A stretch of 64,000 bases of DNA from Caulobacterales bacterium (GCA_035549695.1 DASZQK010000003.1:4833-68832), one strand, 5' to 3'; positions 20,488-40,830 are shown, counted from the first letter of the stretch. Notes: generated by a model from the sequence alone, not told the origin. Made by a program: numbers and translations.

Positions 20488-23070
20488 TTGAGCGCTCATC
20501 CGATCACGAGCTTGCGCGCCGTCATGTGCGGCGCGGCCATGCTTGTTGCGCTGGGCGCATGCGCCGCTTCACAGGGCGCGTCCACCTCGCCGTCGGCGTC
20601 GCCGCCCGCCGTAGCGGAAGCTGACCGCATACACCCCGGCATCTGGCCGCAGGGACACTCCGCGGTGCAGCGCGATCCGGCCATCGAAGCACGCGTGCAG
20701 CAAATTCTCGCGCAGATGACGGTGGAGGAGAAAGTCGGCCAGGTGATCCAAGCCGATGTCAATTCGGTGACGCCGGACGACGTGCGCCAATACCATCTGG
20801 GCTCCGTGCTCAATGGCGGCAATTCGGGCCCGGGCGGCAATGACCGCGCTCCGGCGCCGGTTTGGTTGCAATACGCCGACCAATTCTACGACGCTTCGAT
20901 GCAGTCCTATCCTGGCCGCATCGCCATCCCCGTCATTTGGGGTTCGGATTCCGTCCACGGCAACGCCAACATCATCGGCGCCACGATCTTCCCGCACAAT
21001 ATCGGCCTCGGCGCCGCGCATGATCCCGATCTGTTGAAGCGCATCGGCGAGATCACGGCGCTCGAAACGCGCATTACCGGCCAGGACTGGACCTTCGCGC
21101 CAACCATCGCCGTCGTGCGTGACGACCGGTGGGGCCGCACCTACGAAGGCTATTCGGAAGATCCGCGCATCGTCGCGCTCTATGCGGCCGCGATCACGGA
21201 GGGCATTCAAGGCCGGCCGGGCGATTCCGATTTCTTGCGCGGCCCGCACGTGATCGCCACGGCGAAGCACTTCCTGGGCGACGGCGGCACGCACAACGGC
21301 CGCGATCAGGGCGACAACCAGTATTCCGAAGAACAACTGCGCGACATCTTCGCGCCCGGCTATCCGGCGGCGATCGGCGCCGGCGTGCAGACGGTGATGG
21401 CGTCCTACAATTCATGGCATGGAGTGAAGAGCCATGGTCACAAGGCGCTCTTGTCGGACGTGCTGATCGGGCGCTTCGGCCTTGAAGGTTTCGTCGTCGG
21501 CGATTGGAACGGCCACGGCCAGGTGCCCGGCTGCACGCCGACCAATTGCGCCGCCGCGTTCAATGCGGGGCTCGACATGTTCATGGCGCCCGATTCCTGG
21601 CGCGCGCTCTACACCAACACGCTGGCCTCCGTGCGCTCGGGCGAAATCCCGATGTCGCGCCTCGATGAAGCCGTGTCGCGCATCTTGCGCGTGAAATTGC
21701 GCGCGGGATTGTTCGAAGCGGGCCGCCCGTCGCAGCGTCCCTATGGCGGCCAGTTCAATATGCTGGGCTCCCCCGAGCATCGCGCCGTTGCGCGGCAGGC
21801 CGTGCGTGAATCGCTCGTGCTTCTGAAGAACGACAACCAAATCTTGCCGCTCGCCGCCCGCGCCAACGTGCTCGTGGCGGGGTCGGGCGCGGACAACATG
21901 GGCAAGCAGACCGGCGGCTGGACCATCTCCTGGCAAGGCGCCGACAACAGTCGCGCCGACTTCCCGCATGCGCAGACGATTTTCGAAGGGATACGCGAGC
22001 GCGTGCAGGCCGCCGGCGGTCGCGCCACGCTGAGCGTCGACGGCTCGTATCGCGGCCGCAGGCCCGACGTTGCGATCGTCGTGTTCGGCGAGGACCCGTA
22101 CGCGGAATTCCAGGGCGACCGTGACAATCTTGGCTACCAGCTCGATGAGCCGACGGATCTTGAATTGCTGCGCCGACTGCAAGCCGCGGGCGTTCCCGTC
22201 GTCAGCGTGTTCTTGTCGGGACGGCCGATGTACGTGACGCCTCACATCAACGCGTCGAACGCATTCATCGCGGCCTGGCTTCCGGGTTCGGAAGGCGGCG
22301 GCGTGGCCGATCTTCTGTTCCGCGCGCCGCGCGGGCGCGCGCAATTCGATTTCCGCGGCCAGCTCTCATATTCGTGGCCGCGTGCGCCGGATCAGACGCC
22401 GCTCAATGTCGGCGACGACAACTACAATCCGCTGTTTGCCTATGGCTATGGCCTCACCTATGCGCAGCCGCACAATCTCGGCCAGCTGCCCGAGGCGGCC
22501 GCGAGCAGCATCGCCTCGGCCAACACGACGCGCTATTTCGACGCCGGCGCGGCGCCCGCGCCGTGGATGCTGACATTGATCGATTCCGCCGGCGCACGCG
22601 TCACCGTCGCTTCGACCACGTCTCAGGCGCAGGTGCCGGGCCTGCGGCTTTCTCGCGTCGATCACTTGCACCAGGAAGATGCGCTGCTGGCGAATTGGGC
22701 CGGGGGAACCCGAGCGGGTGTGGCGGTGTCGGGGGCGCCGGTCGATATCTCGCGTCAGACCAACGGCGATATGAGCCTCTCGATCCAACTCCGCGTCGAC
22801 GCGGCGCCGACTTCGCCCGTGCTGCTGTCGGTCACCGACACGCAGCATCGCGCGGCGCTCGATCTCACGGATGCGCTGCGCGCGGCGCAGGGGCATGGCT
22901 GGACCACGGTTCCGATCCGTCTGTCCTGTTTCGCGGCGCAGGGAGCGGATATGTCGAAGGTTACGACGCCCTTCGAATTGTCGAGCGAAGGAAGCTTGAC
23001 CGTCGCCGTCAGCGCCGTGCGGCTGGCGGCAAGCGTTGGTCCGCCATCGTGCCCGGCGGCGGCGCATTGA
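20488..23070 (+). CDS. GH3 beta-glucosidase (exo-glucanase type) lipoprotein with C-terminal galactose-binding-like domain
   Basis: Lipobox LGAC; DSVHGNAN, TIFPHNIGLGA, RWGRTYEGYSED, AKHFLGDGG, GFVVGDW nucleophile region, VLLKN. Confidence 0.95.
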   Translation: MSAHPITSLRAVMCGAAMLVALGACAASQGASTSPSASPPAVAEADRIHPGIWPQGHSAVQRDPAIEARVQQILAQMTVEEKVGQVIQADVNSVTPDDVRQYHLGSVLNGGNSGPGGNDRAPAPVWLQYADQFYDASMQSYPGRIAIPVIWGSDSVHGNANIIGATIFPHNIGLGAAHDPDLLKRIGEITALETRITGQDWTFAPTIAVVRDDRWGRTYEGYSEDPRIVALYAAAITEGIQGRPGDSDFLRGPHVIATAKHFLGDGGTHNGRDQGDNQYSEEQLRDIFAPGYPAAIGAGVQTVMASYNSWHGVKSHGHKALLSDVLIGRFGLEGFVVGDWNGHGQVPGCTPTNCAAAFNAGLDMFMAPDSWRALYTNTLASVRSGEIPMSRLDEAVSRILRVKLRAGLFEAGRPSQRPYGGQFNMLGSPEHRAVARQAVRESLVLLKNDNQILPLAARANVLVAGSGADNMGKQTGGWTISWQGADNSRADFPHAQTIFEGIRERVQAAGGRATLSVDGSYRGRRPDVAIVVFGEDPYAEFQGDRDNLGYQLDEPTDLELLRRLQAAGVPVVSVFLSGRPMYVTPHINASNAFIAAWLPGSEGGGVADLLFRAPRGRAQFDFRGQLSYSWPRAPDQTPLNVGDDNYNPLFAYGYGLTYAQPHNLGQLPEAAASSIASANTTRYFDAGAAPAPWMLTLIDSAGARVTVASTTSQAQVPGLRLSRVDHLHQEDALLANWAGGTRAGVAVSGAPVDISRQTNGDMSLSIQLRVDAAPTSPVLLSVTDTQHRAALDLTDALRAAQGHGWTTVPIRLSCFAAQGADMSKVTTPFELSSEGSLTVAVSAVRLAASVGPPSCPAAAH

Positions 23071-23119
23071 ATACGGTGAGAATCGTGAAAGTTTTGTCTG
23101 TGAAGGCGCGGGGGCGAGA

Positions 23120-24136
23120 GTGAAGGCGACAAGACAATCCGAAGCGCCAAGCCTCGGCCTGGTCGGCGACATCGGCGGCACGCATTGCCGCTTCGCCATC
23201 ACGAGCCTTGGACAAAACGATCTTGGAGCGCCGGCCAAGTATCCCTGCGCCGACTTTCCGGACATCGTGCACGCCATCGGCGCCTACTTGAGTCACGAGC
23301 GGCGCAAGATCGAATGGGCGATGATCGCCGTCGCCGGTCCCGCGGAAAACGACGAGGTCTCCCTTACCAATCTTTCCTGGCACATTTCCGGCAGGGAGAT
23401 TGCTCAAAAGTTTGGTCTGCGCGAAGCGCGTCTCGCCAACGATTTCACCGCCATCTCGCGCGCAACGCCTCTGCTTGAGGGCGCCAATCTGGTTCAGGTG
23501 GGCGGCCCGGCCCGGCCCGATCCAAGCGCCAAGGTGGTCGCGACGATCGGCGCCGGCACGGGGCTCGGCGTCGGCGGCCTGGTCACGACGGGAGCGGCGC
23601 CGTTTCCGTTGTCCACCGAAGGCGGACACACGGCGTTCGCGCCGGTGGAGGAATTCGATTTCGAATTGCTTCGCGTGTTGCGCACGCGCTTCCAGCGCGT
23701 TTCCAACGAACGGCTGCTGAGCGGGGAAGGACTGCACAACATCTATTGGGCGATCAGCGTGCTGGAAGACGCGGCGCCTGAAAAACTCGAACCCAAGGAA
23801 ATCACGCGGCGCGCAATCGCCAAATCGGATCCGCGCTGCGTGCGAGCCGTGAAAGTATTTTGCCGCGTCCTCGGCGCGGTGGCGGGAGACGTGGCGCTGA
23901 CGCTGGGCGCGCGCGGCGGATGCTTTGTTTCGGGCGGCGTCATCCATGGCGTGATGGACGTGTTTGACCGCGCGGGATTCCGCGAGGCGTTCGAGTCCAA
24001 GGGCCGCTTCCGCCCCTACATGGAAGCCATCCCGACGTGGCTGGTGACGCATCCCTATGCGACGCTGCTCGGCTGCGCCGCGCTCGCGGGGGATGTCATC
24101 GCGCCGGCCCGCGCCGGCGTGTCGGCGAAGGTCTGA
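23120..24136 (+). CDS. glk: Glucokinase
   Basis: GDIGGTHCRFA, NDF, GAGTGLGVG, TEGGH, ERLLSGEGL, SGGV, FESKGRF. Confidence 0.95.
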   Translation: MKATRQSEAPSLGLVGDIGGTHCRFAITSLGQNDLGAPAKYPCADFPDIVHAIGAYLSHERRKIEWAMIAVAGPAENDEVSLTNLSWHISGREIAQKFGLREARLANDFTAISRATPLLEGANLVQVGGPARPDPSAKVVATIGAGTGLGVGGLVTTGAAPFPLSTEGGHTAFAPVEEFDFELLRVLRTRFQRVSNERLLSGEGLHNIYWAISVLEDAAPEKLEPKEITRRAIAKSDPRCVRAVKVFCRVLGAVAGDVALTLGARGGCFVSGGVIHGVMDVFDRAGFREAFESKGRFRPYMEAIPTWLVTHPYATLLGCAALAGDVIAPARAGVSAKV

Positions 24137-24153
24137 CGCTCAGGGTCTTCGCA

Positions 24154-24807
24154 TCAGAGAATGCTCTGACCGGTCGCCTTCCAATCCGCGGTGAACGTCT
24201 CGAGGCCTTTGTCGGTCAGGGGATGCTTGATGAGGCCATGGATGATCGCCGGCGGGATTGTCGCCACATCGGCGCCGGCGAGCGCGACCGCGGTGACGTG
24301 CAGCGACGAGCGGATCGAGGCGGCGAGGATTTCCGTTTTGAAATTGTAATTGTCGTAGATGGTGCGGATTTCGCGGATGAGTTCGGCGCCGTCGGCGCCA
24401 ATGTCGTCCAGCCTGCCGATGAACGGCGAGATGTAGGCCGCGCCGGCCTTGGCCGCCAGCAGCGCCTGATTGGCCGAGAAGCAGAGCGTCACGTTGGAAC
24501 GGACGCCTTCCTTGGCCAGCGTGCGGCAAGCTTTGAGGCCGTCCATGGTCAGCGGCAATTTCACCACGACGTTCTTGGCGATTTTGGCGAGCACGCGGCC
24601 CTCCGCCAGCATCGTCTCGTAGTCGGTCGAAGCGACTTCCGCGCTCACGTCGCCGGGAACGACGGCGCAAATGTCGGCGATGAGCTGTTTGAACGGCTTG
24701 CCCGCTTTCTTCACCAGGGAGGGATTGGTGGTGACGCCATCCAGGAGGCCGGTCTCGGCCAGATTGCGGATCTCTTCCAAATCGCCGGTGTCGACGAAGA
24801 ATTTCAT
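24154..24807 (-). CDS. tal: Transaldolase / fructose-6-phosphate aldolase (short type)
   Basis: [45 protein letters not shown]. Confidence 0.93.
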
Positions 24808-24868: not shown

Positions 24869-26866
24869 TTAGGCCTGGAAGATCATCACAAAACCGCCAA
24901 AGGGCGCGACCGCTTCGCTGGTGCGGCGCCCAGCGCCCCGCACGCCTTGGCGGACGCCATAACCTCCGTCGGCCGCGTCGATCAGCACGGTTGGCTCGTT
25001 GCCGAGGCCGTGCAGAGAAGATAGGTCGAAGGCGAGCGTTTTCGAGCGGTCTTCGCCATTGAGTCCGGCGATATACCAGCGCGCGCCGAGGCGCCGCGCC
25101 AACACCACATCCTCGCCGGGTCTGCCCGCCAACAGGCGCGTTTCGTCCCACGCCGTAGGCACGCGGCTGAAATAGTCGCGCCAAGCTTGCGGCAGCGCCG
25201 GATAGATGGATGGCCCGTCGGCGAAATGCTGGATGCCGGATTCGAAGATCACGGCGAGCGCCGCTTCGTGCGCGTTGCTTGTGCGGCGGTTGACGGTGAG
25301 GTGCGAGAACAGGACGGGCGTGTAGTCCATTGACCCGATCACGTTGCGCATGAAGGGATGGATCGTGTTCTGCCTCGGCGCCATGAGACCATAGTCGGGC
25401 TCGGAATTGAACGAGTAGAACTCGCAGCCGCGCACCGCCTCCATGCTGATGAGATTGGGCCAGGTGCGCTGCCAGCCGCGCGGAATGGTGCAGCCATGAA
25501 AGTCGCACATGAGGTGGAATTCCGCCGCATCGTCCATGATCTCGGTATAAAGGCGGATGATCTCCTGTTTGTCGCTCTGGAAGAAATCGACCTTTACGCC
25601 TCGGACTCCCAATTGCCGCAGCCTTGCCATCTCCGCGCGGCGGCGCAGGCGATCGTCCATGATGTTGCGCGGCTGTTCGGTGACGACGTTGTGGCGGCCG
25701 CCGGAATTGTACCAGAACAGCAGGCCGATGTTTTTCGTATCCGCATAGGCGACGAGTTGCTCCATGGCGTTGTCGCCGGAGCGATTCCAGTTGGCGTCGA
25801 TCAGGGTGTAGGACCATCCCATTTCGGCGGCGAGATCGATGAAGCCGCGAAGTTTGGCCTGATCCATTCCGCTGTCGTGGTCATAAACCCAATTCCATGA
25901 AGCCGCGCCCGGCTTGATCCAGCCCGTGTCCGCTATGCGCGAGGGTTCGGCGAGGTGGAAAACGAGATTGCTCTCGACGATGTCCGCCAGCTTGTCGCTC
26001 ACCACAAGCATGCGCCATGGCATCGCCCACGGCAGCGGCGATGTCGGATAGTTCGCGCCGAAGCCGAACGATTCCGACGGCATGGGCGGTTCGATACGAT
26101 AGACGCCGTCCGGCGCATCCTTGTTGAGGCGCGAGCCGTGAAAAGTCGCGTCGAGACCGGTTTCGTGGATGAGCACGTACGCGCCGTCGAGCTCGAACAG
26201 GGAGGGAAAGCCCCAGCTCACGCCCAATTCCGCCGGCGTCGGCGTGCCGATGGGATAGCTTTCGTACGGCGTTTCGTACGAGGGGTGGTACATGTCGAAA
26301 AAGTCGTAAGCCGCGCCCCAGAAGCGTCCGCGTGCGCCCATATTGAACGCTGTCTTTTCCTCGATCATGTGATGATGGACGACGCTGGTCTCCGGCAGCA
26401 CGTAGCGGAACGCGACGCCATCCTCGTAGGCCCTGAATTCCATACGCAGGACGCGGTGCGTGGCGGCGTGCGTGAAGGTCAGCGAAAGCTGGTTGTACGC
26501 CGCCCGGTTGGCGCGCCGCTTGCCCGTGACGAGTTCATAGACATCTTCACCGCTCGCCGTCTCCGCTCCGTCGAAGCGCAGGCCGTTTGAAAAATCGGAG
26601 ATCACCGGCGTGCGCAGATCCTGGGTGTTGTAAAGCCGCGTGACGATGCCAAGATCGGACCAGCCGACGACGCGCCGGTCTCCAAGCAGTACGGAATATT
26701 GCGCTCCCGCGGCATGATCCCAGCGCACTTGGAGTTGCGTGCGCCGGCGCGGCGAGCGCAGCGACCAGGATGTCGCGCCGGGTTCGGCGCGGACGTCGAC
26801 AAATGCAGCGAAGGCGACGGCCGCCGCGCCCGCGCCCAGCGCCGTTCTACGTGTCAGTTCAGTCAT
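24869..26866 (-). CDS. GH97 alpha-glycosidase, Tat-exported
   Basis: Tat leader [10 protein letters not shown]; [60 protein letters not shown]. Confidence 0.92.
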
Positions 26867-29040
26867 CGCGCCGGCTCCCCATAAACCACGCCGCGTCCAT
26901 CCGTGCCGACATACACGCGTCCGTAGATGCGTGGATCGGCGGCAATGCAGCGGAAACGGCGGCCATATTCGTGCGACTCGTCATTGATGCGCGTCCAGGT
27001 GCGGCCGACATCATCGGAACGGAATATCGCCCGCATCTGGCCTTGCCAGGCGATGGCGTAGAGCGCGGGGTAGTCGCGTCCCGGCGGCGGGGCGCCGAAC
27101 GCAAATCTCTCGACGCCGACGTCGCTGTCGATGTGGGCGAATGAACGACCGCCGTCGGTCGAGTGATACAGCCCGCTTCGCGACATGAACCAGAGGTCGC
27201 CGCTGCGATCCGGTGTGGCGATGAGCGGCCATTGCGCCTCGCGCCAGCCGGGACGGTCGCCAGTGATATCGTTGGGCAGACCTTGTGTGGCTTGGGCGCT
27301 GAACGTGGCGCCGCCGTCGCGGCTCAAAAGCACGCGGCGCCGCTCGAAATCCATCGCGTAGAAGACGCGCCCATTGACACGGTCGGCGATCGGATGCGCC
27401 TGCGTCGGCAAACCTTGAGCTTCGCGCCACGTTTGGCCGCGATCCCACGTCACGAGTGGCGTCGGCGCGGCGACGATAAAGGCTGCACCATCGGCCGATA
27501 CGACGATTGCCGCATCGCCGGGCGGGGACGGCGTCGCCAGCGGCGCCCAGTTGCGGCCATAATCGGTCGAATAGGCGAGCCGCGCGCCGTCGCGATCGTG
27601 GGGCACGCCGCTTCGCACCACGACATTTGGCGCAGCGCCCGCCACGTCGATCGTGTTGGTGTTGTTGAAGACGGGATTTGTGAATTGCAGGCGCGGGGAG
27701 ACGTCAAGGTCCTCGTGCGCAAAGCCGCCGATGTCGCCGAACCCGCTCAGCAGGTGGAATGGTCCGCCGCTTGGGCTGGCGATCGTGATGACGGCGGTCT
27801 CTTCGACGCCATTCACCCAAGGCCGCCACAGGCTTGGGCCGGCGAGGTCGTCGTGCGTGGCGTAGATGGTGGCGCCGGTCGTGTAGACGACGTGATTGGA
27901 GTCGAAGGGATCGATCGCAAGTCCGGCGATCCACCACCCGAAGCTCACGTCCTGCTCGCCCCAATGCAGGAACGGCGTGGCGCTGACGTCGCGTTGCGCT
28001 TGCGGGCGAATGTCGCGCCAAGTGCGTCCGGCGTCCGTGGAGCGCCAGATTGTGTCGCGCGGACCCCAGCGATTCATCGATGCGACCGTGAGCGTGCCTG
28101 GATGCCGGCGATCGAGAGCAAGGCCCATGAAGCCGCCTTCGACGCGATCCGGCGGCGTGACGTCGGTCCAGCGGCGGCGATGCGTGTCGTACTTGTAGAG
28201 CGCGCCGTCGCGCACGCCATTGGGTCCGATGCCGTCGCTGTAGGCAATATAGAGCATGGCGTCAGCGTCCATCTCCGCCTTGACGGGCAAGAGATCTGGG
28301 CGAGGCTCACCGGCGACCGGCCGCCACGTAAGGCCGGCGTCGGTCGAGACGAACACGTGCGCCGCGCCCGGATCGGCGACGCCCGCGTAGATCGTGCGCG
28401 AGCCCGCGTTTTGCGCGCTCGCAGGGTCGAATACGACAAAACTCACGCCGCCATGCGTTGGCTGTCCCGGTTCTGGAAGGCCGAGGCCGCGGATCGGAAA
28501 TGAATCGACGCGCGACCAATGCGCGCCGGAATCCGCGCTGCGCTGCAGCCCGTCATGGCGCGAGCCAAAATAGAGAATGGCGCTGTTGTTCGGGTCGATG
28601 GCGAGCCGTTCGCCCAGGCCGCGGCCGTCTTCATTGCCGCCCATGCGAAACGGGACGGGGAAGATCTCCCAATGCGCGCCGCGGTCGCGTGAACGCAAGA
28701 TGGCCGCCGCGTCGCGCCGATACATGCCAGCCGCGACGAAAACGGTGTCCGCATCCGCTGGATCGGCAACGACGCTCTCGGCGCCATAATAGTTGGATTG
28801 CGGCATCGCATCCTGCAGCGCGATCCAGCGCTGCGCCGTGTCATCCCAGCGATAGACGCCGCCAATGTCCGTGCGCGCATAGGCAAGGCCGCGTTCGGCG
28901 GTGCTGAAGACGACATTCGGCACGAAGCCGCCGCCGCCGACGCGCACGTCGCGCCACACATAGGTCTGCGCGTGCGAAACCGGCGCCGCGAACAATACGA
29001 TCAGTGCGCCAATCAGCGCGGGCCCAATCCAGCGGCGCAT
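26863..29040 (-). CDS. GH74 xyloglucanase
   Basis: Signal peptide then YVWRDVRVGGGGFV, YARTDIGG (catalytic D), GNEDGRGLGERL, GVEETA, SGFGDIGGF (second D), YVGTDGRG; start MRRWIG at 29040. Confidence 0.93.
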   Translation of the reverse strand: MRRWIGPALIGALIVLFAAPVSHAQTYVWRDVRVGGGGFVPNVVFSTAERGLAYARTDIGGVYRWDDTAQRWIALQDAMPQSNYYGAESVVADPADADTVFVAAGMYRRDAAAILRSRDRGAHWEIFPVPFRMGGNEDGRGLGERLAIDPNNSAILYFGSRHDGLQRSADSGAHWSRVDSFPIRGLGLPEPGQPTHGGVSFVVFDPASAQNAGSRTIYAGVADPGAAHVFVSTDAGLTWRPVAGEPRPDLLPVKAEMDADAMLYIAYSDGIGPNGVRDGALYKYDTHRRRWTDVTPPDRVEGGFMGLALDRRHPGTLTVASMNRWGPRDTIWRSTDAGRTWRDIRPQAQRDVSATPFLHWGEQDVSFGWWIAGLAIDPFDSNHVVYTTGATIYATHDDLAGPSLWRPWVNGVEETAVITIASPSGGPFHLLSGFGDIGGFAHEDLDVSPRLQFTNPVFNNTNTIDVAGAAPNVVVRSGVPHDRDGARLAYSTDYGRNWAPLATPSPPGDAAIVVSADGAAFIVAAPTPLVTWDRGQTWREAQGLPTQAHPIADRVNGRVFYAMDFERRRVLLSRDGGATFSAQATQGLPNDITGDRPGWREAQWPLIATPDRSGDLWFMSRSGLYHSTDGGRSFAHIDSDVGVERFAFGAPPPGRDYPALYAIAWQGQMRAIFRSDDVGRTWTRINDESHEYGRRFRCIAADPRIYGRVYVGTDGRGVVYGEPAR

Positions 29041-29131
29041 GTCGTCAGCGTTTCCTCTTTTTGCGGCCAGACGGATTGCCGATTGGTATGATTTATTCTC
29101 TAACTTGGACGGCGAAGACAAGGAGGAAGCG

Positions 29132-31516: not shown

Positions 31517-31540
31517 CGCCGTTTCGCTTGTGATCGTCCG

Positions 31541-31554
31541 ATTGATATGACAAT
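31541..31554. promoter_or_regulatory. Shared operator motif copy upstream of GH35 (GntR/FadR-like)
   Basis: Imperfect palindrome ATTGATATGACAAT; weaker copy ATTGGTATGATTTA at 29082..29095, both preceded by CCG. Confidence 0.5.
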
Positions 31555-31582
31555 AGAAAAAGAAAACACTTCAGGGCGGAGA

Positions 31583-33235
31583 ATGCGGATTTTCGGCGGC
31601 TTGATCGGCATGGCGCTCGCCTGTGCGGCGAGCCTGACGGCGTGCGCGCCGCACGCGCCATCCTCCGAGAAGGACGCGCTGCCGCATTTTGTGACGCAGA
31701 ATGGCCGTCATGCGTTCATCGTCGACGGTCAGCCTTTTCTGATGCTGGGCGCACAGGCGAACAATTCCAGCAACTATCCCTCGGCGCTGCCGAAGGTTTG
31801 GCCCGCGGTCGAGGCGCTGCACGCCAACACGCTGGAGATTCCGGTCGCGTGGGAGCAAATCGAGCCGAGCGAAGGACAGTTCGATTTTTCTTACGTCGAT
31901 ACGCTCGTCGCGCAAGCGCGCGAACACAACGTGCGCCTCGTTTTGCTTTGGTTCGGCGCATACAAGAACACCGGGCCGAACTATGCGCCCGGCTGGGTCA
32001 AGGTCAACAACCAGCGCTTTCCCCGCATGATGGATGCGAGCGGCGGAATCGTCTATGCGCTGTCGCCGCACATTCAGGCGACGCTTGACGCCGATTCTCG
32101 CGCATTCGCCGCGCTCATGCGCCACGTGCGCTCCATCGACGGCGCTTTGCACACAGTGATCATGGTGCAAGTGGAAAACGAGACGGGTGTTTATGGTCCC
32201 GTGCGCGACTTTTCTCCGGCGGCGCAGGCCTTGTTCGATGCGCAGGCGCCTGCGGCGCTGCTCGCGGCGCTGCACAAACCGCCGGGAACCTGGACGCAAG
32301 TATTCGGGCGCGATGCGGACGAGTTCTTCGCGGCCTGGCACATGGCGCGCTATGTCGAGCAGGTGGCCCAGGCCGGACATCGCGAATACGCTTTGCCGAT
32401 GTACGCCAACGCTGCGCTGCGCGACCCCGTGAATTATCAGGACCCCCATTCCTTCGCGAGCGGGGGCCCGACCTGGGATGTAATCGAGATTTGGAAGGCC
32501 GCCGCGCCCACGCTCTCGGTGCTGGCGCCGGACGTGTATGAACGCGCATACCCCGTCGCGAGCGCGCATTTCGCGCGTTATACGCGCGCCGACAATCCGC
32601 TCATGATCGTCGAGATCGGCAACGATCCGGCCTATGCGCGCTATATGTTCGCCGTGTTCGGCGCCGGCGGCGTCGGCTTCGCGCCGTTCGGCATGGACTA
32701 CACGGGCTACTCCAACTACCCGCTGGGCGCGAGCGCCGAGGGTGAGGCCCGCATTGCGCCGTTCGCGCAATTGTTCGAGGTCATGGCGCCGGTGGCGCGC
32801 GATTGGGCGCGTATCGCTTACGAGCATCCCACATGGGGCGTCGCCAAGCCGGATGATAACGCGGATCAGGAGATCGCCCTCGGCGATAGCCGCTGGAAGG
32901 CGACGGTCGAGTACGATGAGTGGGCGTTCGGCTTCGCGCGTTGGAATATGGCGCACGACGAGCCGCCGCCGAATCTCGCCAAGCGATCGGGCGGCGCGAT
33001 GATCGCCCAGCTCGCGCCCGACGAATATCTGCTCATCGCGCAAAACGCGCGCGTCTCTTTCGCGTTGAAGGATGCGGGCGGGGCGAACGGCGTGATCTTC
33101 GACCGTGTCGAGGAGGGGCGTTTCGAGCGCGGCCAGTGGGTGATGGACCGTGTGTGGAACGGCGATCAGACGGATTATGGCCTGAATTTCAGCGACCAGC
33201 CGCGCGTGTTGCGCGTGAAACTCGCGACCTACTGA
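31583..33235 (+). CDS. GH35 beta-galactosidase (DUF5597 C-terminus), lipoprotein
   Basis: Lipobox LTAC; QANNSS, WEQIEP.EGQFDF, QVENE acid/base, APDVY, VE nucleophile region, VEEGRFERGQW...WNGDQT. Confidence 0.92.
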   Translation: MRIFGGLIGMALACAASLTACAPHAPSSEKDALPHFVTQNGRHAFIVDGQPFLMLGAQANNSSNYPSALPKVWPAVEALHANTLEIPVAWEQIEPSEGQFDFSYVDTLVAQAREHNVRLVLLWFGAYKNTGPNYAPGWVKVNNQRFPRMMDASGGIVYALSPHIQATLDADSRAFAALMRHVRSIDGALHTVIMVQVENETGVYGPVRDFSPAAQALFDAQAPAALLAALHKPPGTWTQVFGRDADEFFAAWHMARYVEQVAQAGHREYALPMYANAALRDPVNYQDPHSFASGGPTWDVIEIWKAAAPTLSVLAPDVYERAYPVASAHFARYTRADNPLMIVEIGNDPAYARYMFAVFGAGGVGFAPFGMDYTGYSNYPLGASAEGEARIAPFAQLFEVMAPVARDWARIAYEHPTWGVAKPDDNADQEIALGDSRWKATVEYDEWAFGFARWNMAHDEPPPNLAKRSGGAMIAQLAPDEYLLIAQNARVSFALKDAGGANGVIFDRVEEGRFERGQWVMDRVWNGDQTDYGLNFSDQPRVLRVKLATY

Positions 33236-33245
33236 GGCCGAGACG

Positions 33246-36149
33246 ATGGGGACGGGCATGAAAATCTTGGCGTGGAGCGGAAAGGCCGCGGCGGCTCTTG
33301 GCGCGCTGGCGCTGCTTGCGTGCGCGACGAGCGGTTCGGCGCCCACGGCGTCGGCGCCGGCCGCGCCGGCGTGGCAACGAGTCGAAGGCGGCGTGTTGAT
33401 CACGCCCTCCGAGCATCCCGATCGCCGCGTGCGCTTGCAGGTGATGAGCGACCGCGTCGTGCGCGTGACGGAATTCCCGAGCGCGGACCTCAATCTGCCC
33501 GAAAGCGTGATGGTGACGGCGCAGCCCAGCGGCGCTTTCGACATTTCGACCAGCAGCGACAGGCTAACGCTGACCACGGCGCATGTGCGCGCGGAGGCCG
33601 CGCTCAGCGACGGCGTCGTGCGCTTTCTGGATGCGCAAGGACATCCGATCCTCGCAGAAGAAGGCGCAGGCGCGTTCGAGCCGGTGACCGTCGAAGGCCA
33701 GCGTTTCTACGCCATCCGCCAGCAATTCAACCGCGGCACCGACGAGGGCTTCTACGGGCTCGGCCAGCACCAGAATTTGCAGTTCAATTATAACGGCGAG
33801 GACGTCGAACTCGCGCAGCACAACATGGATATTGGCATCCCGTTCGTGGTGTCGACCCGCAATTACGGCGTGCTGTGGGACACCAACTCGATCACGCGCT
33901 TTGGCGATGCACGCCCCTATCAGGCGATCACCCAGAGCCTTATGGTGCGTGACGCGCAAGGCGCGGAGGGCGGCCTCACGGCGCAATATTATGGCGCCGA
34001 CAACGCGCTGATCGTGACGCGCCGCGAAGCGGACGTGGACTACCAGTATTTGCCGACGGATCAGTTCGCCACGGGCCAAGCCGTGCGTGACGTTTGGCCG
34101 GCGGAAATGAATCACGTTGAGCCGGCCAAGATCGTTTGGAGCGGCACGGTCGAGGCGCGCAGCGCCGGCCTGCACAAGTTCCGGCTCTATGCCGGCAATT
34201 ATTTCAAGCTCTGGGTCGACGATCAGCTCGTGCTCGACGGCTGGCGGCAGAATTGGAACCCTTGGTATCGCAATTTCGAGGTGCAGATGGCCCCCGGCGA
34301 GCGCCACGCCATCCGCATCGAATGGATTCCGAACGGCAGCTATATCAAACTCGATCACCTCGATCCGCTGCCGGCGGAGGATCGCCACTCGCTCTCGCTC
34401 GCCTCCGAAGTAAGCCATGCGATCGACTATTATTTCGTCAGCGGCGACAATATGGATCAGGTGATCGCCGGCTATCGCGCGCTCACCGGCAAAGCCGTGC
34501 TGCTGCCGCGCTGGGCCTACGGCTATTGGCAGAGCCGCCAGCGCTACAACACGCAGGCGGAACTCACCGGCGTGCTGCATGAGTACCGCCGCCGCGGACT
34601 GCCGCTCGACGCTATGGTGCAGGATTGGTTCTACTGGCCCGAGAACGCCTGGGGCTCGCACGATTTCGACCGCGCGCGCTACCCCGATCCGGCCGCCATG
34701 GTGCGCGACGTCCACGCCAACAACGCTCACATCATGATATCGGTGTGGCCGAAATTCTATCCTACGACCGATAATTACAAAGAGCTCGACGCCATCGGCG
34801 GCATTTATCGCCGCAACGTGGAGATGGGCCGGCGCGACTGGGTCGGGCCGGGCTATGTCAGCACGTACTATGATCCGTATTCGAGCCGCGTGCAGGATGT
34901 GTACTGGCGCCAGATCCATGAAAAACTCGGCGTGATGGGTTTCGATGCGTGGTGGCTCGACAATGACGAGCCGGACATTCACTCCAATCTCTCCATCGCC
35001 GACCGAGCTTACATCCAGGGACCGACGGCGCGCGGTCCGGGCGCGGAATATTTCAATTCGTTTCCGCTGCTGCATGTCGGCGGCATGTATGATCACCAGC
35101 ACGCCAACGATCCCAACACGCGCCAATATATCTTCTCGCGCTCAGCCTGGGGCGGGATGCAGCGTTATGCGGCGGCGATGTGGTCGGGCGATCTCGCGGC
35201 GCGCTGGTACGATATGCGCGCGCAGATCTCGGCGGGCGTGAATTTCTCCATGTCGGGCATTCCGAACTGGACCTTCGATATCGGCGGCTTCGCCGTCGAA
35301 GATCGCTATTCGCACCAAGACCCCGCGCATCAGGCGGAGTGGCGCGAGCAATATCTGCGCTGGTTCCAGTTCGGCGCGTTCGCGCCGATCTTCCGCGCGC
35401 ACGGCGAATTCCCGCTGCGGGAAATCTACAACATCGCCCCGGCGGGTTCGGAGGTGGAGCAAAGCCTCATCTGGTACGATCGGCTGCGCTATCGCCTCAT
35501 GCCATACATCTACACGGTGGCCGCGGGAACCTATCAGGGCGACGGCACGATCATGCGCGGCCTCGTGATGGATTTTCCGAACGATCCGAACGTCCGCGAC
35601 ATGGGCGATGAATACATGTTCGGTCCCGCCTTCCTGGTCGCGCCCGTCTATGAATTCCACGCGCGCACGCGCGATGTGTATCTGCCGGCCGGCAATCGCT
35701 GGTACGATTTCTACACGGGCCGTGCGTTCGATGGCGGTCGGCGCGTCAACGCCGATGCGCCGCTCGCGCGCATGCCGGTATTCGTCCGCGCCGGCTCGAT
35801 CATTCCGACGGGCCCGGCGATCCAATATACGGGGCAAGATCCGGCCGGGCCCGTCACGATCACGGTTTATACCGGCCGCGACGGATCGTTCGACCTCTAC
35901 GAGGACGATGGCGTCTCGAACGGCTATCAGCGCGGCGAATTCTCACGCATCCCAATGAGCTACGACGACGCGACTGGCGCGTTGACGATCGGAGCTCGCG
36001 CGGGCTCGTTCCCCGGCATGGCGGGCGCGCGCACCTTCAACGTGCGCTTCATCTCCGGCCCGACGCGGAGCGCAACCAATTTCGACGCCCGCGCCGATCG
36101 CAGCGTGCGCTATTCCGGCGCGGCGGTGACGATCCGGCGGCCGCGGTGA
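33246..36149 (+). CDS. GH31 alpha-xylosidase with PA14 insert, lipoprotein
   Basis: Lipobox LLAC; YGLGQHQ, GYWQSRQRY, WWLDNDEPD nucleophile, WSGD, WTFDIGGF acid/base, FRAHG, LYEDDG; architecture like Cellvibrio Xyl31A. Confidence 0.93.
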   Translation: MGTGMKILAWSGKAAAALGALALLACATSGSAPTASAPAAPAWQRVEGGVLITPSEHPDRRVRLQVMSDRVVRVTEFPSADLNLPESVMVTAQPSGAFDISTSSDRLTLTTAHVRAEAALSDGVVRFLDAQGHPILAEEGAGAFEPVTVEGQRFYAIRQQFNRGTDEGFYGLGQHQNLQFNYNGEDVELAQHNMDIGIPFVVSTRNYGVLWDTNSITRFGDARPYQAITQSLMVRDAQGAEGGLTAQYYGADNALIVTRREADVDYQYLPTDQFATGQAVRDVWPAEMNHVEPAKIVWSGTVEARSAGLHKFRLYAGNYFKLWVDDQLVLDGWRQNWNPWYRNFEVQMAPGERHAIRIEWIPNGSYIKLDHLDPLPAEDRHSLSLASEVSHAIDYYFVSGDNMDQVIAGYRALTGKAVLLPRWAYGYWQSRQRYNTQAELTGVLHEYRRRGLPLDAMVQDWFYWPENAWGSHDFDRARYPDPAAMVRDVHANNAHIMISVWPKFYPTTDNYKELDAIGGIYRRNVEMGRRDWVGPGYVSTYYDPYSSRVQDVYWRQIHEKLGVMGFDAWWLDNDEPDIHSNLSIADRAYIQGPTARGPGAEYFNSFPLLHVGGMYDHQHANDPNTRQYIFSRSAWGGMQRYAAAMWSGDLAARWYDMRAQISAGVNFSMSGIPNWTFDIGGFAVEDRYSHQDPAHQAEWREQYLRWFQFGAFAPIFRAHGEFPLREIYNIAPAGSEVEQSLIWYDRLRYRLMPYIYTVAAGTYQGDGTIMRGLVMDFPNDPNVRDMGDEYMFGPAFLVAPVYEFHARTRDVYLPAGNRWYDFYTGRAFDGGRRVNADAPLARMPVFVRAGSIIPTGPAIQYTGQDPAGPVTITVYTGRDGSFDLYEDDGVSNGYQRGEFSRIPMSYDDATGALTIGARAGSFPGMAGARTFNVRFISGPTRSATNFDARADRSVRYSGAAVTIRRPR

Positions 36150-37438
36150 CCGTCGACGCCGCGCCGCGCCCGCGTACGCTCGAGCGCGAGAGCGTCGCGC
36201 CCTTCATCGTCATCGCCAGCCTGTTCCTGTTCTGGGGAGTGGCGAACGGCTTGAACGGCGTGCTCGTGAAGACGTTGCGCAAGGCTTTTGAACTGACCGT
36301 TCAGGAAGGGGTCCTGGTCGATACGGCGTTCTATCTCGGTTATTTCGTGTTTGCGATCCCGGCCTCCATGTTCATGCGCCGCTATGGTTACAAGGCCGCG
36401 CTTGTGTTCGGCTTGATGCTCTACGGCGTCGGCGCGCTTTTGTTCTTTCCGGCCTCTGAGCTGCGCGTGTACGGCTTCTTCCTCGGCGCGCTGTTTGTGA
36501 TCGCCAGCGGCCTGGCGTTTCTCGAAACCTCGGCGAATCCGTTGATCGCCGTGATGGGCGCGCCGGAAACGGCGGAACGGCGGCTGAATTTTGCGCAATC
36601 GTTCAACGGTTTCGGCCCGATCAGCGCAGCATTGATCGGGCGCTTCGTCATATTCTCCAACGTCGAATACACGCCCGAACAACTCGCAGGCATGCCGGCG
36701 CGCGAGGTCGCGGCGTATTTCGAGAGCGAAGCGCGCGCCGTGCAATTGCCCTACGTACTGTTGGGCGCTGTCGTTCTGATCTGGGCCGTGTTGGTGCTGA
36801 GCGTGCGCTTTCCGGCTGTCGCCGCGCCGTATGCGGAAGCGGATTCCGCCGCCCCGCAACGCTTTTCGCAATTGCTGAAGCAGCCGCGCTACCTGTTCGG
36901 CGTGGTGGCGCAATTCTTTTACGTCGGCGCACAGGCGGGCGTGTGGGGGCTTACCATCATCTACGCGCAGCACGCCGCGCCGGGCCTGCACGAGCAGAGC
37001 GCGGCCTATGTGTACCTCGCCGGGCTCGTCGCCTTCATGCTGGGCCGTTTCACCGGCACCTGGCTGATGGGCTTCGTGCGCGCTGATCTTTTGTTGGCGA
37101 TTTTCTCCGCCGCCAGCGTGGCGTTGATGATTCTCGCGGCAACGTCGGGCGGCCCGATTGGCCTTGGCGCGCTGATCGCCGCGTATTTCTTCATGTCGAT
37201 CATGTTCCCGACGATCTTCGCGTCCTCGATCCGCGGATTGGGCACGCTCGTGAAGCCGGCGTCGTCCTTTCTCATCATGGCGATCATCGGCGGGGCGGTG
37301 CTGCCGCAAGTCATGGGCCGCATCGCGGACGCGACGCACAACGTGCAACTCGCCATGTTCGTCCCGGCGCTGTGCTTCGCGGTTATTTGCGTGTTCGGTC
37401 TTACCGGCCTCAAGGCGACTCGGCGCGCGTCGGCATAA
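36146..37438 (+). CDS. fucP: L-fucose:H+ symporter family MFS permease
   Basis: LFLFWGVAN, AFYLGYF, FLETSANP, RLNFAQSFNGFG, QFFYVGAQ, SIMFPTIF, MAIIGGA. Confidence 0.92.
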   Translation: MTVDAAPRPRTLERESVAPFIVIASLFLFWGVANGLNGVLVKTLRKAFELTVQEGVLVDTAFYLGYFVFAIPASMFMRRYGYKAALVFGLMLYGVGALLFFPASELRVYGFFLGALFVIASGLAFLETSANPLIAVMGAPETAERRLNFAQSFNGFGPISAALIGRFVIFSNVEYTPEQLAGMPAREVAAYFESEARAVQLPYVLLGAVVLIWAVLVLSVRFPAVAAPYAEADSAAPQRFSQLLKQPRYLFGVVAQFFYVGAQAGVWGLTIIYAQHAAPGLHEQSAAYVYLAGLVAFMLGRFTGTWLMGFVRADLLLAIFSAASVALMILAATSGGPIGLGALIAAYFFMSIMFPTIFASSIRGLGTLVKPASSFLIMAIIGGAVLPQVMGRIADATHNVQLAMFVPALCFAVICVFGLTGLKATRRASA

Positions 37439-38993
37439 GGCCGTCGAGCTCGCGCAGATCGCGTCCGCGCGTCTCCGCGCCGAAGCGGGCGATCAGCGCC
37501 ATGGCCGCGAGTCCGATCGAGCCGATCGCCAGCGCCGCGGCGCCCAGCGGGGGAATGCCGATGAACACGCTGACGGCCTGCGCCAGCAGGCCCCCGCCCT
37601 TGCTGCACCCGGCAATCCAGCCGGACGCACGACCGCGGATGCGCAGCGGGTAGCATTCCGCCGTGTACGGCAGGAGCACTGAGATCGCGCCGGTCGCTCC
37701 GATGATCAACAGCGAGGTGAAAAGCAGGGGGCTCGTGAAGCCTGGGATTCCCGTCGTTCTCAACAGCACCGCCACCAGGCCGACCGTGATCACGGCGATC
37801 ATCGCCATCAGCGAGCCTCTGGTGCTCCACCTGCTGTAGAGCCACGTGCAGACGAGCACGACCGGCGCCGCGATCAGCGAGGAATTCCTGATCATCTCGC
37901 TCGCCGCGCCGATGCTGAGGCCTTCGGACGTCAATGTAATCGGCAGCCAGAGCAAGAGGCCGAAATTCACAAGCCCCCAGGCCAGCGCCGCCAGAGTGAG
38001 CGCGAGCGTGATGCCGAGGTGGTTTTGCTCGATCGGCGGCAGATGGGAATGATCGTCGGTGTCGGCCTGCGGCCGGGATGCGACGACGACCGCGCCGAAG
38101 CGGGCCAAGGCGGCGCGCGCCTCGGCCCCGCGCCCCATGTGTTGAAGGAATCGGGCGGATTCCGGAAGCATCCGCGCCATCAGGATGATGATGAGGCCGG
38201 TGGGCAGATTGAGAAACCACATGATGCGCCAGCCCCAATAGGGCTGCAGCAATTGCGACAGACCGCTCGCGGCGAAGTAGCCGCCCACGGCGCCCATGCC
38301 ACCGACCAGAACAAGGCTCCATCCGCGGTGCTTTGTCGGCATGATCTCGGCGAGCAGGGCATAGGCGACCGGCAGCATGCCTCCGGCAGAAAGGCCCATC
38401 AGGAAACACATGCCGACATTCCACCAGAAGTCGGGCATCGCCCCACAAATCGACGTGCCGACAAACATCACGGCGGAAAGCAGGATTGCCGCACGCCGCC
38501 CATACAAATCCGCAAGCGCGCCCCAAACAAAGGATCCTGTGGCGGTGCCGGCGAGCGCTCCGAACGGCAGGATCGACACTGTCGCGCCGTTGACCGCGTA
38601 CTCGGTGCGCATGCCCGGCGTGACAAAGCCCAGGCTCGCGGGCTTCATGATGTCGATGACCAAAGCGACGGTAAGCACGCCCATGACGATCCAATGCTCG
38701 CGCGTGAGCGGGGCGTCTTCCGGCGGCGTCAGCCGCTCGATGGGATCATGCGCGTGGGAAAGCGCCTCGGGTTTGGGAAGAAGGCCGTAGCCGGCGATGC
38801 CGACGCCGACGACAATAGCGAGCATGCCGAGATACATCCCGGCGTCCATCGGCATGCCGACGAGGACGAAATGGTTGAAGCGACCCATCCAATACATCGG
38901 CAGATGCAGAATGACGCCGATGGTGACGAGCACCCAGCCGACGCCGAAGGCCCAGGTGCTGCGCCGGCCGGAAAAATTGAAGGCGTCGGTCAC
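37410..38993 (-). CDS. MFS transporter with a Met/His-rich two-helix N-terminal extension
   Basis: WGALADLYGRR motif A, ALLAEIMP..HRG, PESARFL, PYTAECYPLRIRGRA; GTG start near 38993. Confidence 0.85.
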   Translation of the reverse strand: MTDAFNFSGRRSTWAFGVGWVLVTIGVILHLPMYWMGRFNHFVLVGMPMDAGMYLGMLAIVVGVGIAGYGLLPKPEALSHAHDPIERLTPPEDAPLTREHWIVMGVLTVALVIDIMKPASLGFVTPGMRTEYAVNGATVSILPFGALAGTATGSFVWGALADLYGRRAAILLSAVMFVGTSICGAMPDFWWNVGMCFLMGLSAGGMLPVAYALLAEIMPTKHRGWSLVLVGGMGAVGGYFAASGLSQLLQPYWGWRIMWFLNLPTGLIIILMARMLPESARFLQHMGRGAEARAALARFGAVVVASRPQADTDDHSHLPPIEQNHLGITLALTLAALAWGLVNFGLLLWLPITLTSEGLSIGAASEMIRNSSLIAAPVVLVCTWLYSRWSTRGSLMAMIAVITVGLVAVLLRTTGIPGFTSPLLFTSLLIIGATGAISVLLPYTAECYPLRIRGRASGWIAGCSKGGGLLAQAVSVFIGIPPLGAAALAIGSIGLAAMALIARFGAETRGRDLRELDGLMPTRAESP

Positions 38994-39067
38994 GTGATTT
39001 CCCCCGCGCCTTCCGCTGTGGCAGGGCCGGGCTTTCCAGCGCAAGCCGCGGCTGGCAATCTTTGCCA

Positions 39068-40066
39068 ATGGCCGCTAAATGTTTTCAGGAGCGCGTTGTG
39101 CAACTGGGTCTGGGCGGCGCCGCGGTCGGCAATCTCTATCGGGCCGTCACCGAGCCCGACGCCGAGGCCGCAATCCTCGGCGCCCTCGAAGGCGGGTTCG
39201 AGCTCATCGACACCGCGCCGTATTACGGTCACGGCCTTTCCGAGCTGCGTATCGGCGCCGCGCTTCGGAAATGGCAAGGACCCGCGCCACTCATCTCCAG
39301 CAAGGTCGGGCGCGTGCTCGATCCGGTCGCTCCGGGTGAGGAGGGCGATTTTGGCTTCGTCAGCCCGGCGCCCTTTCGCCCGCGCTTCGATTATTCGCGA
39401 TCGGGCGTTCGCCGCAGCTTGGAGGAGAGTCTGGAGCGGCTCGGCGTCGCCAAGCTCGCCGTCGCGCTGGTTCACGATGTCGGCCAACTCACCCACGGCC
39501 AAGCGCACGCCCAAGTGCTTCGCCAAGTGTTGGACGAAGCCTTGCCCGAGCTTTGGCGTGCGCAAGGCGAGGGTCTGGTCGGCGCCATAGGCATTGGCGT
39601 CAACGAGTGCGATGTTTGCCACGAGATCCTTGCGCGCGCGCCGCTCGACTGCATCTTGCTCGCCGGCCGCTACACGCTGCTGGAGCAGCCCGCGCTGACA
39701 AGCGGGCTGCTGGATGTCTGCGCCGGACGCGGCGTTTCGGTCATGGCCGCCGGAGTATTCAATTCAGGTTTGCTGGCGACGGCGCCGACTTCAGCCAGCA
39801 CCTATAACTACGCGCGAGTTCCGCAGCCGATGCTTGATCGCGCGCGGGCGATCTGGTCGCTTTGCCAGGAGCATGGCGTGGCGCCGCAAGGGGCGGCGCT
39901 GCGTTTCGCGGCGGCTCATCCTGCGGTATCGCACACGATTGTCGGCGCGCGCAGCCGCGCGGAAGTCGACGAACTCATCGCTTGGCGCGCGGCTGAAATA
40001 CCGGGCGCGCTATGGACCGCGCTGAAGGCGCGCGGTTTCCTCTCGGCCGAAGCGCCCACGCCTTAG
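39068..40066 (+). CDS. Aldo/keto reductase, L-fucose (D-threo-aldose) 1-dehydrogenase-like
   Basis: LGLGGAAVGNLY, DTAPYYGHGLSE, SSKVGRVL, FDYS, VHD, LLAGRYTLLEQ, GVFNSG. Confidence 0.85.
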   Translation: MAAKCFQERVVQLGLGGAAVGNLYRAVTEPDAEAAILGALEGGFELIDTAPYYGHGLSELRIGAALRKWQGPAPLISSKVGRVLDPVAPGEEGDFGFVSPAPFRPRFDYSRSGVRRSLEESLERLGVAKLAVALVHDVGQLTHGQAHAQVLRQVLDEALPELWRAQGEGLVGAIGIGVNECDVCHEILARAPLDCILLAGRYTLLEQPALTSGLLDVCAGRGVSVMAAGVFNSGLLATAPTSASTYNYARVPQPMLDRARAIWSLCQEHGVAPQGAALRFAAAHPAVSHTIVGARSRAEVDELIAWRAAEIPGALWTALKARGFLSAEAPTP

Positions 40067-40830
40067 CCGTTCTTGAGCCGCGCCGTGATCGCCTTCGCCG
40101 CTTCGCGCGTGAGCTCGGTGCATTGCTCGATCGGCGGTCCCGGCGGATGGCGCGCGACAAAGGGCATGGTGATGCTGGCGATTGCACCCAGATTCTCGCC
40201 GTCATAGACGGCCGCGCCGATGTCGCGGATGCCGTCGGAGATGCGGCTCGGCTCCAGCAGGTAGCCGCGTTCGGCGGCCGCCTTGGATTCCGCAACGAAC
40301 GCGTCGATCGCCTTGGCGTCAGGCGCTTTGGCCTTCCAAAGTCGCAAGAGTTCGTTCTGGCGAGCTTCCGATTGGGCGCCGAAAATTACCCGCGCCGAGG
40401 CGGAACGCAAAATCGGCACGCGATGCCCCACCCGCACTGAAAAACTCACCGCCGCCGGACTCTCGACCCGCGCGATAACGACGACATGATCGTCATCGCC
40501 GATCATCACGCCCAGGTGGCAGGATTGCTGGCTTCGTTCCGCCAGCGTGTGCATCACCGGCAATGCGGCGTCGTGCAAGTTGCGCATCGGCGGATTGCGC
40601 ATGCCGAGTTCGAACAGCCGGCTGGTGATCTGGTAGCGGTCGTCGTATTCCCCCCGCGCGATGTAGCCGCGCGCCTCAAGCACGACGAGCATGCGGTAGA
40701 TTTCGGTTTTCGAGCGCCCGAGTTTCTGAGCGATTTCCGGCATCGCCAAGGGCGAGGGCTGGCCAGCGAGCAATTCCAGGATTTCCAGCCCCTTATCGAG
40801 GGCCGGCGCTTTGTAGACCGCTTTCGCCAA
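40063..40830 (-). CDS. IclR family transcriptional regulator
   Basis: YKAPALDKGLEILELLA...IYRMLVVLEARGY HTH; SASARV effector domain; probable TTG start at 40830. Confidence 0.92.
   Translation of the reverse strand: MAKAVYKAPALDKGLEILELLAGQPSPLAMPEIAQKLGRSKTEIYRMLVVLEARGYIARGEYDDRYQITSRLFELGMRNPPMRNLHDAALPVMHTLAERSQQSCHLGVMIGDDDHVVVIARVESPAAVSFSVRVGHRVPILRSASARVIFGAQSEARQNELLRLWKAKAPDAKAIDAFVAESKAAAERGYLLEPSRISDGIRDIGAAVYDGENLGAIASITMPFVARHPPGPPIEQCTELTREAAKAITARLKNG

Follow-up and report, generated by a model that had tools for sequence, protein, structure and literature searches.

A putative xyloglucan saccharification and sugar-catabolism locus in a Terricaulis-like Caulobacterales genome

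Results

Gene content of the locus

We analysed a window of 64,000 nucleotides from a Caulobacterales bacterium (GCA_035549695.1, DASZQK010000003.1:4833-68832) that carries a probable locus for the degradation of the plant hemicellulose xyloglucan and the catabolism of its sugars. The source, an uncultured bacterium, is represented by a metagenome-assembled genome (MAG) of 67 contigs, 99% complete and labelled G000 here, in which the window lies on contig C3 of 69.5 kb. Genes were called from six-frame open reading frames (ORFs) combined with profile searches (Pfam, NCBIfam, and TIGR) and matches to the Protein Data Bank (PDB). A block of 26 kb, from 14949 to 40887, was resolved in this way. 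It comprises glycoside hydrolases of families GH3, GH97, GH74, GH95, GH35, and GH31, genes for galactonate, glucose, and possibly fucose catabolism, two transporters of the major facilitator superfamily (MFS), and two regulators. The gene clustering is, as judged from sequence comparison, not due to chance, because the same order is found in a second Caulobacterales MAG (G013), and related GH74/GH31/GH35/GH3 clusters occur in other Caulobacterales. The base composition of the block shows no anomaly. Its flanks are unrelated, with the formaldehyde detoxification genes frmA and fghA upstream and a surface-polysaccharide (exopolysaccharide, EPS) biosynthesis cluster downstream, starting from 41.4 kb.

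Identity of the xyloglucan enzymes

The GH74 protein (26863-29040, minus strand) is, from its sequence, an endo-xyloglucanase with a Sec signal. It matches 2cn2 (Clostridium Xgh74A, E 4e-151) and 12 other solved endo-xyloglucanases, with ORF residues 122-822 aligned and the whole of the two-domain beta-propeller fold spanned. The residues D58 and D436, which we take to be the catalytic pair, lie within DIGG motifs and are invariant across 119 aligned homologues, and the protein of the window retains all conserved acidic residues.

Divergent from GH74, the genes encoding GH95, GH35, and GH31 are contiguous (29132-36149). GH95 (29132-31516, plus strand) is a predicted alpha-1,2-L-fucosidase, with a catalytic domain match of E 1e-166, solved matches to 4ufc and Xanthomonas 7kmq, and a NIN motif at ORF residue 423. 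GH35 (31583-33235, plus strand) is a predicted beta-galactosidase of the Bgl35A type (NF051902, 479 bits), matching Caulobacter 3u7v at 664 bits, Xanthomonas 7kmn, and the Cellvibrio Bgl35A structures 5jaw (586 bits) and 4d1i (585.6 bits). GH31 (33246-36149, plus strand; PF07691 and PF01055) is a predicted alpha-xylosidase of the Xyl31A type with a PA14 insert. It matches 2xvg (Cellvibrio Xyl31A) over its full length with 1158 bits and 7kmp (Xanthomonas alpha-xylosidase) with 1124 bits. A WSGD motif (acid/base) was found in GH31, and a simple pattern search returned no nucleophile motif. Further upstream, GH3 (20488-23070, plus strand) contains the Pfam GH3 N and C domains and Exop_C, and is a predicted ExoP-type exo-beta-glucosidase whose best PDB match is the ExoP-type exo-beta-glucanase 3usz (791 bits). 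The same kind of search returned no catalytic motif for GH35 or GH3, though their full-length matches are strong. The PDB series 7kmm-7kmq and 7kn8, which gave strong matches over the full length, presumably represents the Xanthomonas enzymes of the X. citri xyloglucan locus study. Jointly, the predicted activities of GH74, GH95, GH35, GH31-PA14, and GH3 suffice to cleave all glycosidic linkages in de-acetylated fucogalacto-xyloglucan.

GH97 (24869-26866, minus strand) is a putative alpha-glycosidase of unassigned specificity, and the first 4 nt of its gene overlap the GH74 stop. Its best PDB match is 5xfm. The gene is absent from the otherwise syntenic locus of G013, and GH97-like genes at 29-30% identity occur in the xyloglucan loci of Caulobacteraceae.

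Sugar catabolism and uptake

A putative De Ley-Doudoroff set for galactose lies at the upstream end of the block, on the minus strand. It consists of a KDPG/KDPGal aldolase for the final step (14949-15608; PF01081, E 5e-27), the 2-keto-3-deoxy-galactonokinase DGOK (15575-16480; PF05035, E 4e-90), an SMP-30-type sugar lactonase (16477-17334; PF08450, E 1e-77), and an IlvD/EDD-family sugar-acid dehydratase of the L-arabinonate/D-galactonate type (17334-19055), assigned from its PDB matches. The dehydratase matches 8ej0 with 886 bits, and 5j83/5j84 and 9evv (deposited as L-arabinonate dehydratase) with approximately 872 bits; we take 5j83/5j84 to be the Rhizobium enzyme. It is thus L-arabinonate-like rather than an enolase-type DgoD, and it is the sole sugar-acid-type paralogue in the genome. 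The L-arabinonate-type dehydratase class also takes D-galactonate, which fits the neighbouring DGOK and aldolase.

Between GH3 and GH97 lie the glucokinase gene glk (ORF 23036-24136, plus strand, with the start probably near 23120; TIGR00749, 262 bits, cut-off 225) and the short-type transaldolase gene tal (24154-24807, minus strand; PF00923, E 2e-65), each present as a single copy in the genome. At the downstream end, the L-fucose:H+ symporter FucP (36146-37438, plus strand; TIGR00885, 373 bits, cut-off 280) follows GH31, with the first 4 nt of its gene overlapping the GH31 stop. An aldo-keto reductase (39068-40066, plus strand; PF00248) is a candidate L-fucose/L-galactose 1-dehydrogenase; its assignment as a fucose dehydrogenase is plausible but weak. 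The block ends with an IclR-family regulator (40063-40887, minus strand). The second MFS transporter (37410-39068, minus strand) has an N-terminal extension of approximately 120 residues, and its family matches are all below threshold. With 89.5% identity in G013, it is among the best-conserved proteins of the xyloglucan module, and it is without counterpart in the Caulobacteraceae loci examined.

The first-pass annotation had listed GH74, GH95, GH35, GH31 with PA14, GH3, FucP, the aldo-keto reductase, glk, tal, and galactonate genes in this region, and all of them are present with strong profile or structure matches. It had placed them at 20488-40830. The listed genes are real, but the galactonate genes (14949-19055) lie outside that interval, and GH97, the second MFS transporter, and the LacI-family and IclR-family regulators had been omitted.

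Predicted localisation

Signal peptides and lipoboxes were read from the N-termini. The four exo-enzymes GH3 (LGAC), GH95 (LSSC), GH35 (LTAC), and GH31 (LLAC) carry lipoboxes and are predicted lipoproteins; the lipoboxes of GH3, GH95, and GH35 are kept in G013. The Sec signal of GH74 ends AHA-Q, and the protein is without a carbohydrate-binding module (CBM). GH97 has a twin-arginine (Tat-type) signal.

Regulatory elements

A LacI-family regulator (19298-20311, plus strand; PF00356 and PF13377) is encoded between the dehydratase, from which it diverges, and GH3. A LacI-type operator palindrome, TGACAGCGTTGTCA, lies 5' of GH3 at 20327-20340, fits the pattern TGnnAnCGnTnnCA, and is identical in G013. 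An imperfect copy in the dehydratase/LacI gap (19202-19215) has three mismatches relative to the site at 20327 and is conserved in G013. We considered whether this operator links the whole locus and rejected the idea, as there are only two sites, both at the GH3/galactonate end.

An AT-rich element of 14 nt, ATTGATATGAYWWW, occurs three times in the window, each copy facing a downstream plus-strand gene. The copies are ATTCATATGACAAA in the dehydratase/LacI divergent region (19112-19125, plus strand), ATTGGTATGATTTA in the GH74/GH95 divergent region, facing GH95 (29082-29095, plus strand), and ATTGATATGACAAT 5' of GH35 (31541-31554, plus strand). Those at 19112 and 29082 are conserved in G013. 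Genome-wide, 10 matches were found at no more than two mismatches, of which 7 precede glycan genes. Sites away from the window precede a CE20 esterase gene (C17:~6169, minus strand), the LacI gene of a xylan locus (C7:~63564, minus strand), a lone TonB-dependent transporter (TBDT) gene (C23:~6924, plus strand), and a GH2-GH53 galactan pair (C7:~22187, plus strand). In G013, the element pattern gave 5 matches against 0 for a reversed control, 2 of them in the xyloglucan locus, and it precedes the orthologues of the CE20 esterase (81% identity) and of the xylan-locus LacI (82%). The core of the element resembles an extended -10 box (TGnTATGAT). The element may mark a plant-glycan regulon specific to this lineage, or it may be a specialised promoter.

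Functions encoded away from the locus

No acetylesterase was found on the 69.5-kb contig. Two CE20-type esterase homologues are encoded elsewhere in the genome, on contigs C17 and C60. The homologue on C17 has a signal peptide and matches 7kmm (Xanthomonas xyloglucan acetylesterase) over its full length with E 1e-105. The shared AT-rich element is the best evidence that this unlinked esterase belongs to the same system.

Xylose catabolism was likewise not found in the locus; xylA and xylB are located on contig C7. There they belong to a xylan-type locus (C7:57897-83402) that also encodes an enolase-superfamily dehydratase, GH10, a GFO/IDH oxidoreductase, LacI, an aldose epimerase, ThuA, and GH2. 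The TBDT of this C7 locus is a protein of 1153 residues flanked by three tryptophan-halogenase-like genes.

Of a route for fucose, the locus itself contains FucP and one candidate enzyme, the aldo-keto reductase. An unlinked cluster on contig C5 (C5:80701-89088) encodes two short-chain dehydrogenases/reductases (SDRs), a FucP paralogue, two amidohydrolase_2 proteins, an FAH hydrolase, an enolase-superfamily dehydratase, and IclR, a combination of domains that we take to be that of the non-phosphorylative L-fucose pathway. In Xanthomonas campestris, this pathway, as reportedly described by Yew et al. in 2006, is said to comprise a fucose dehydrogenase, an amidohydrolase-type lactonase, the enolase-type FucD, an SDR dehydrogenase, and an FAH-type hydrolase.

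Host lineage, distribution, and phylogeny

The closest relative of the GH74 protein is annotated as "MAG: xyloglucanase [Terricaulis silvestris]" (76% identity), followed by the protein of the "Caulobacterales bacterium" MAG G013 (71%). Terricaulis has been placed in the Aquidulcibacteraceae, a family sister to the Hyphomonadaceae (PMC12700997). The host therefore appears to be a Terricaulis-like member of the Aquidulcibacteraceae, a prosthecate, budding, hyphomonad-related lineage, an assignment that is based on the GH74 matches only. The stalked or hyphomonad-type host proposed in the first-pass annotation agrees with this placement.

G013 holds the same locus, in the same order and at the same chromosomal place, with 67-97% protein identity and without GH97. 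A second GH74 paralogue of G013 (C197:10257-12431) lies on a different contig and is 36% identical to that of the window. Within the genus, the locus is rare, and GH74 was found in 2 further genomes of 24. A GH74 match in G011 was discounted, as it covers 62 residues only and aligns to a part of the query ORF, its N-terminal extension, that is non-coding. None of 23 high-quality genus genomes has GH31 and none of five near-complete ones has GH3; in two of these five, the dehydratase is present at another location. In the four of the five that have fghA, the frmA-fghA pair is conserved and nothing of the 26-kb block follows it. FghA identity across the genus is about 63-66%, which is too divergent to define insertion boundaries.

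A different type of xyloglucan cluster was observed in G018, which is binned to the same genus. It spans C13:9718-19999 and contains GH74, GH3, DGOK, aldolase, GH31, and GH35 in an order like that of the Caulobacteraceae loci. Its proteins are mostly about 53-59% identical to those of the window (DGOK 39%), and its GH74 coding sequence runs in two frames. An independent acquisition, decay of the gene, or wrong binning of the contig could each account for this.

Across the order, GH74 was detected in 15 and Xyl31A-type GH31 in 27 of 301 sampled Caulobacterales genomes (about 5-9%). They occur mostly in one family, presumably Caulobacteraceae sensu stricto, where they often lie within a few kb of each other and together with a TBDT and a CE20-like esterase. 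Orthologues of the aldolase adjoin GH3, GH74, and GH31 in G303, G234, and G018, and GH3 orthologues (51-53% identity) adjoin GH74 in the same three genomes. In these genomes, linkage to GH74/GH31 recurs for GH3, DGOK, aldolase, and the IlvD-type dehydratase. A database search for GH74-related loci returned only relatives at 41-42% identity, from Streptomyces and Verrucomicrobia, which were uninformative on synteny, and a search for contigs encoding tal returned none.

In a quick GH74 tree, the proteins of the window, the Terricaulis MAG, and G013 form one clade with 100% SH-aLRT support. The clade is surrounded by sequences from soil Gammaproteobacteria, Steroidobacteraceae, and Rhizomicrobium, apart from the GH74s of Caulobacteraceae. 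This position fits a horizontal spread of the gene and names no donor.

Discussion

Proposed role of the locus

The region is likely to be a locus of the proteobacterial Xanthomonas/Cellvibrio kind that serves to saccharify xyloglucan and to catabolise the sugars released, here carried by a Terricaulis-like member of the Caulobacterales. In the proposed pathway, xyloglucan fragments would cross the outer membrane through an unlinked TBDT, and GH74 would shorten them, probably in the periplasm. The unlinked CE20 esterase of C17 would strip the acetyl groups, and the membrane-tethered exo-enzymes would free fucose, galactose, xylose, and glucose, which would enter the cell through FucP and the MFS transporters. 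Glucose would then be channelled to Glk and galactose to the De Ley-Doudoroff enzymes, xylose to XylA/XylB encoded on C7, and fucose to the aldo-keto reductase of the locus and the non-phosphorylative cluster on C5. Regulation would operate in two layers. The first would be the LacI operator before GH3 and in the dehydratase/LacI gap. The second would be the AT-rich element, promoter- or operator-like, common to the GH95 and GH35 units, the dehydratase/LacI gap, the CE20 gene, and the LacI gene of the xylan locus.

Several observations weigh against this assignment. No galactose dehydrogenase was identified, the nearest solved relatives of the aldo-keto reductase are plant L-galactose dehydrogenases at E 6e-22 only, and GH97 has no known role on xyloglucan. 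The LacI operator reaches no further than the GH3 and galactonate units, so the region consists of several transcription units rather than one operon. Of 23 TBDT matches in the genome, none is on the 69.5-kb contig C3, and the locus of G013 is also without one. When TBDTs from Caulobacteraceae xyloglucan loci were used as queries, the best match in the genome was only 34% identical (C7:70328-73786). In addition, the type II secretion markers GspD and GspG gave no match above the family cut-off in the 99%-complete MAG, whereas the control genomes were positive; access to polymeric xyloglucan is therefore unexplained. The locus had been called complete in the first-pass annotation. This description does not hold, as the contig has neither a TBDT nor an acetylesterase, xylose catabolism is encoded elsewhere, the fucose route is represented by one candidate enzyme, and the galactose dehydrogenase is missing from the identified set.

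Two TBDTs were considered. The protein at C7:70328-73786 was rejected as an orthologue of the xyloglucan-locus transporters, given its 34% identity and its position in the xylan/xylose locus with GH10, GH2, and xylAB. The lone TBDT at C23:6937-9594 is no more than a candidate; it has an element with one mismatch, its neighbours are unrelated, and in G013 no element was seen before an equivalent gene. For type II secretion, the sole weak secretin match was located at C12:47380-48297. Sec-signal glycanases, GH74 and GH10, are encoded despite the lack of detected type II secretion markers.

These features bear on whether the organism degrades the polymer itself. There is close to an even chance that it is instead a scavenger of oligosaccharides, in which all steps, including that of GH74, would be periplasmic, and xyloglucan fragments released by fungi or other bacteria would be taken up by unlinked TBDTs. 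Since no type II secretion markers were detected, GH74 may stay in the periplasm and act there on imported fragments. Its Sec signal without a CBM, the predicted lipidation of all the exo-enzymes, and the 23 TBDTs elsewhere in the genome are consistent with such a lifestyle. However, absence from a MAG of 67 contigs is not proof, other export is possible, for example by vesicles or surface lipoprotein export, and the best structural matches of GH74 are endo-enzymes that act on the polymer. A more far-reaching proposal, which we regard as unlikely, combines fully periplasmic, "selfish" xyloglucan use with dispersed regulation. Large fragments would enter via an unlinked TBDT and be processed by a non-secreted GH74 and four tethered exo-glycosidases. 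One lineage-specific AT-rich cis-element, read by a regulator or a specialised promoter, would wire together the xyloglucan locus, the CE20 esterase, the xylan/xylose locus, the galactan GH2-GH53 pair, and the lone TBDT.

The block could also be a mosaic of adjacent, independent sugar units for galactonate, beta-glucan (GH3-glk), the side chains of xyloglucan, and the uptake of fucose. Six or more transcription units can be counted, as can three regulators or cis-elements. Both glk and tal are housekeeping genes present once in the genome, GH97 is inserted relative to the G013 locus, and parts of the block are absent or elsewhere in five genus genomes. We consider this quite unlikely, because independent Caulobacterales lineages repeatedly link GH3, DGOK, aldolase, and the IlvD-type dehydratase to GH74/GH31, and the AT-rich element is common to the galactonate/LacI unit and the xyloglucan units. 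It is highly improbable that the enzymes act on a similarly linked glycan from a source other than plants, such as a glucan of microbes or algae with fucose or xylose substituents, or whatever the neighbouring polysaccharide cluster makes. The EPS cluster from 41.4 kb and the lack of a xyloglucan role for GH97 and the second MFS transporter would suit this, but the enzyme matches are full-length and strong, and GH74, Xyl31A-type GH31, Bgl35A-type GH35, and GH95 are the set characterised on xyloglucan (PMC8245568, PMC4285296).

As a xyloglucan locus, the region extends the proteobacterial design to the Aquidulcibacteraceae (Terricaulis group), a soil family whose ecology is barely known, and suggests that some of its members feed on the hemicellulose of plant primary walls. 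The knowledge of how xyloglucan is degraded is unchanged by it. The practical gain is modest and consists of a matched enzyme set from a new lineage and a cis-element that connects dispersed plant-glycan genes. It also presents a case for asking how xyloglucan reaches the periplasm without a TBDT in the locus or detectable type II secretion.

Comparison with known systems

Our literature search returned no study in which a xyloglucan locus of the Caulobacterales is characterised, as the first-pass annotation had supposed. The novelty this implied was overstated, given the order-wide occurrence of GH74 (15/301) and GH31 (27/301) and the fact that NCBI already names the nearest homologue "xyloglucanase". 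The likeness to the loci of Xanthomonas and Cellvibrio that it proposed is borne out by the best PDB matches, which include those very enzymes. Relative to loci of this type, the enzyme content is present, including the backbone-cleaving GH74, whereas a TBDT, and the CE20 gene found in the locus of Xanthomonas only, are absent from the locus.

The locus XAC1768-1777 of Xanthomonas citri (Vieira et al. 2021, PMC8245568) shares GH74, GH31, GH35, and GH95 with the window. Both systems also have a CE20-type esterase in the genome, an MFS transporter nearby, and xylA/xylB for xylose. Unlike X. citri, the locus of the window has no TBDT pair and no CE20 gene, and xylA/xylB are on another contig. It adds GH3, GH97, FucP, glk, tal, the aldo-keto reductase, and the galactonate genes. 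Further differences are the lipoboxes on all four exo-enzymes, the lack of type II secretion markers in our searches, and a host that is not a plant pathogen.

In Cellvibrio japonicus (CJA_2706-2710; Larsbrink et al. 2014, PMC4285296), Xyl31A with PA14, Bgl35A, and Afc95A are clustered as in the window. The C. japonicus locus includes a TBDT and is without an endo-xyloglucanase and a beta-glucosidase, whereas that of the window has GH74 and GH3 and no TBDT. Only Xyl31A is lipidated in C. japonicus, whereas all four exo-enzymes of the window are predicted lipoproteins.

The Caulobacteraceae loci of G303 and G234 differ from that of the window in that they also contain a TBDT, a CE20-like SASA esterase, and a tryptophan-halogenase-like gene; GH95 is replaced by GH29 in G303. 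Their proteins are 39-69% identical to those of the window (GH97-like 29-30%), and their GH74 falls in a different clade of the tree. Shared between these loci and the window are GH3, GH74, GH31, GH35, GH97-like, DGOK, KDPGal aldolase, the IlvD-type dehydratase, the aldo-keto reductase, and IclR.

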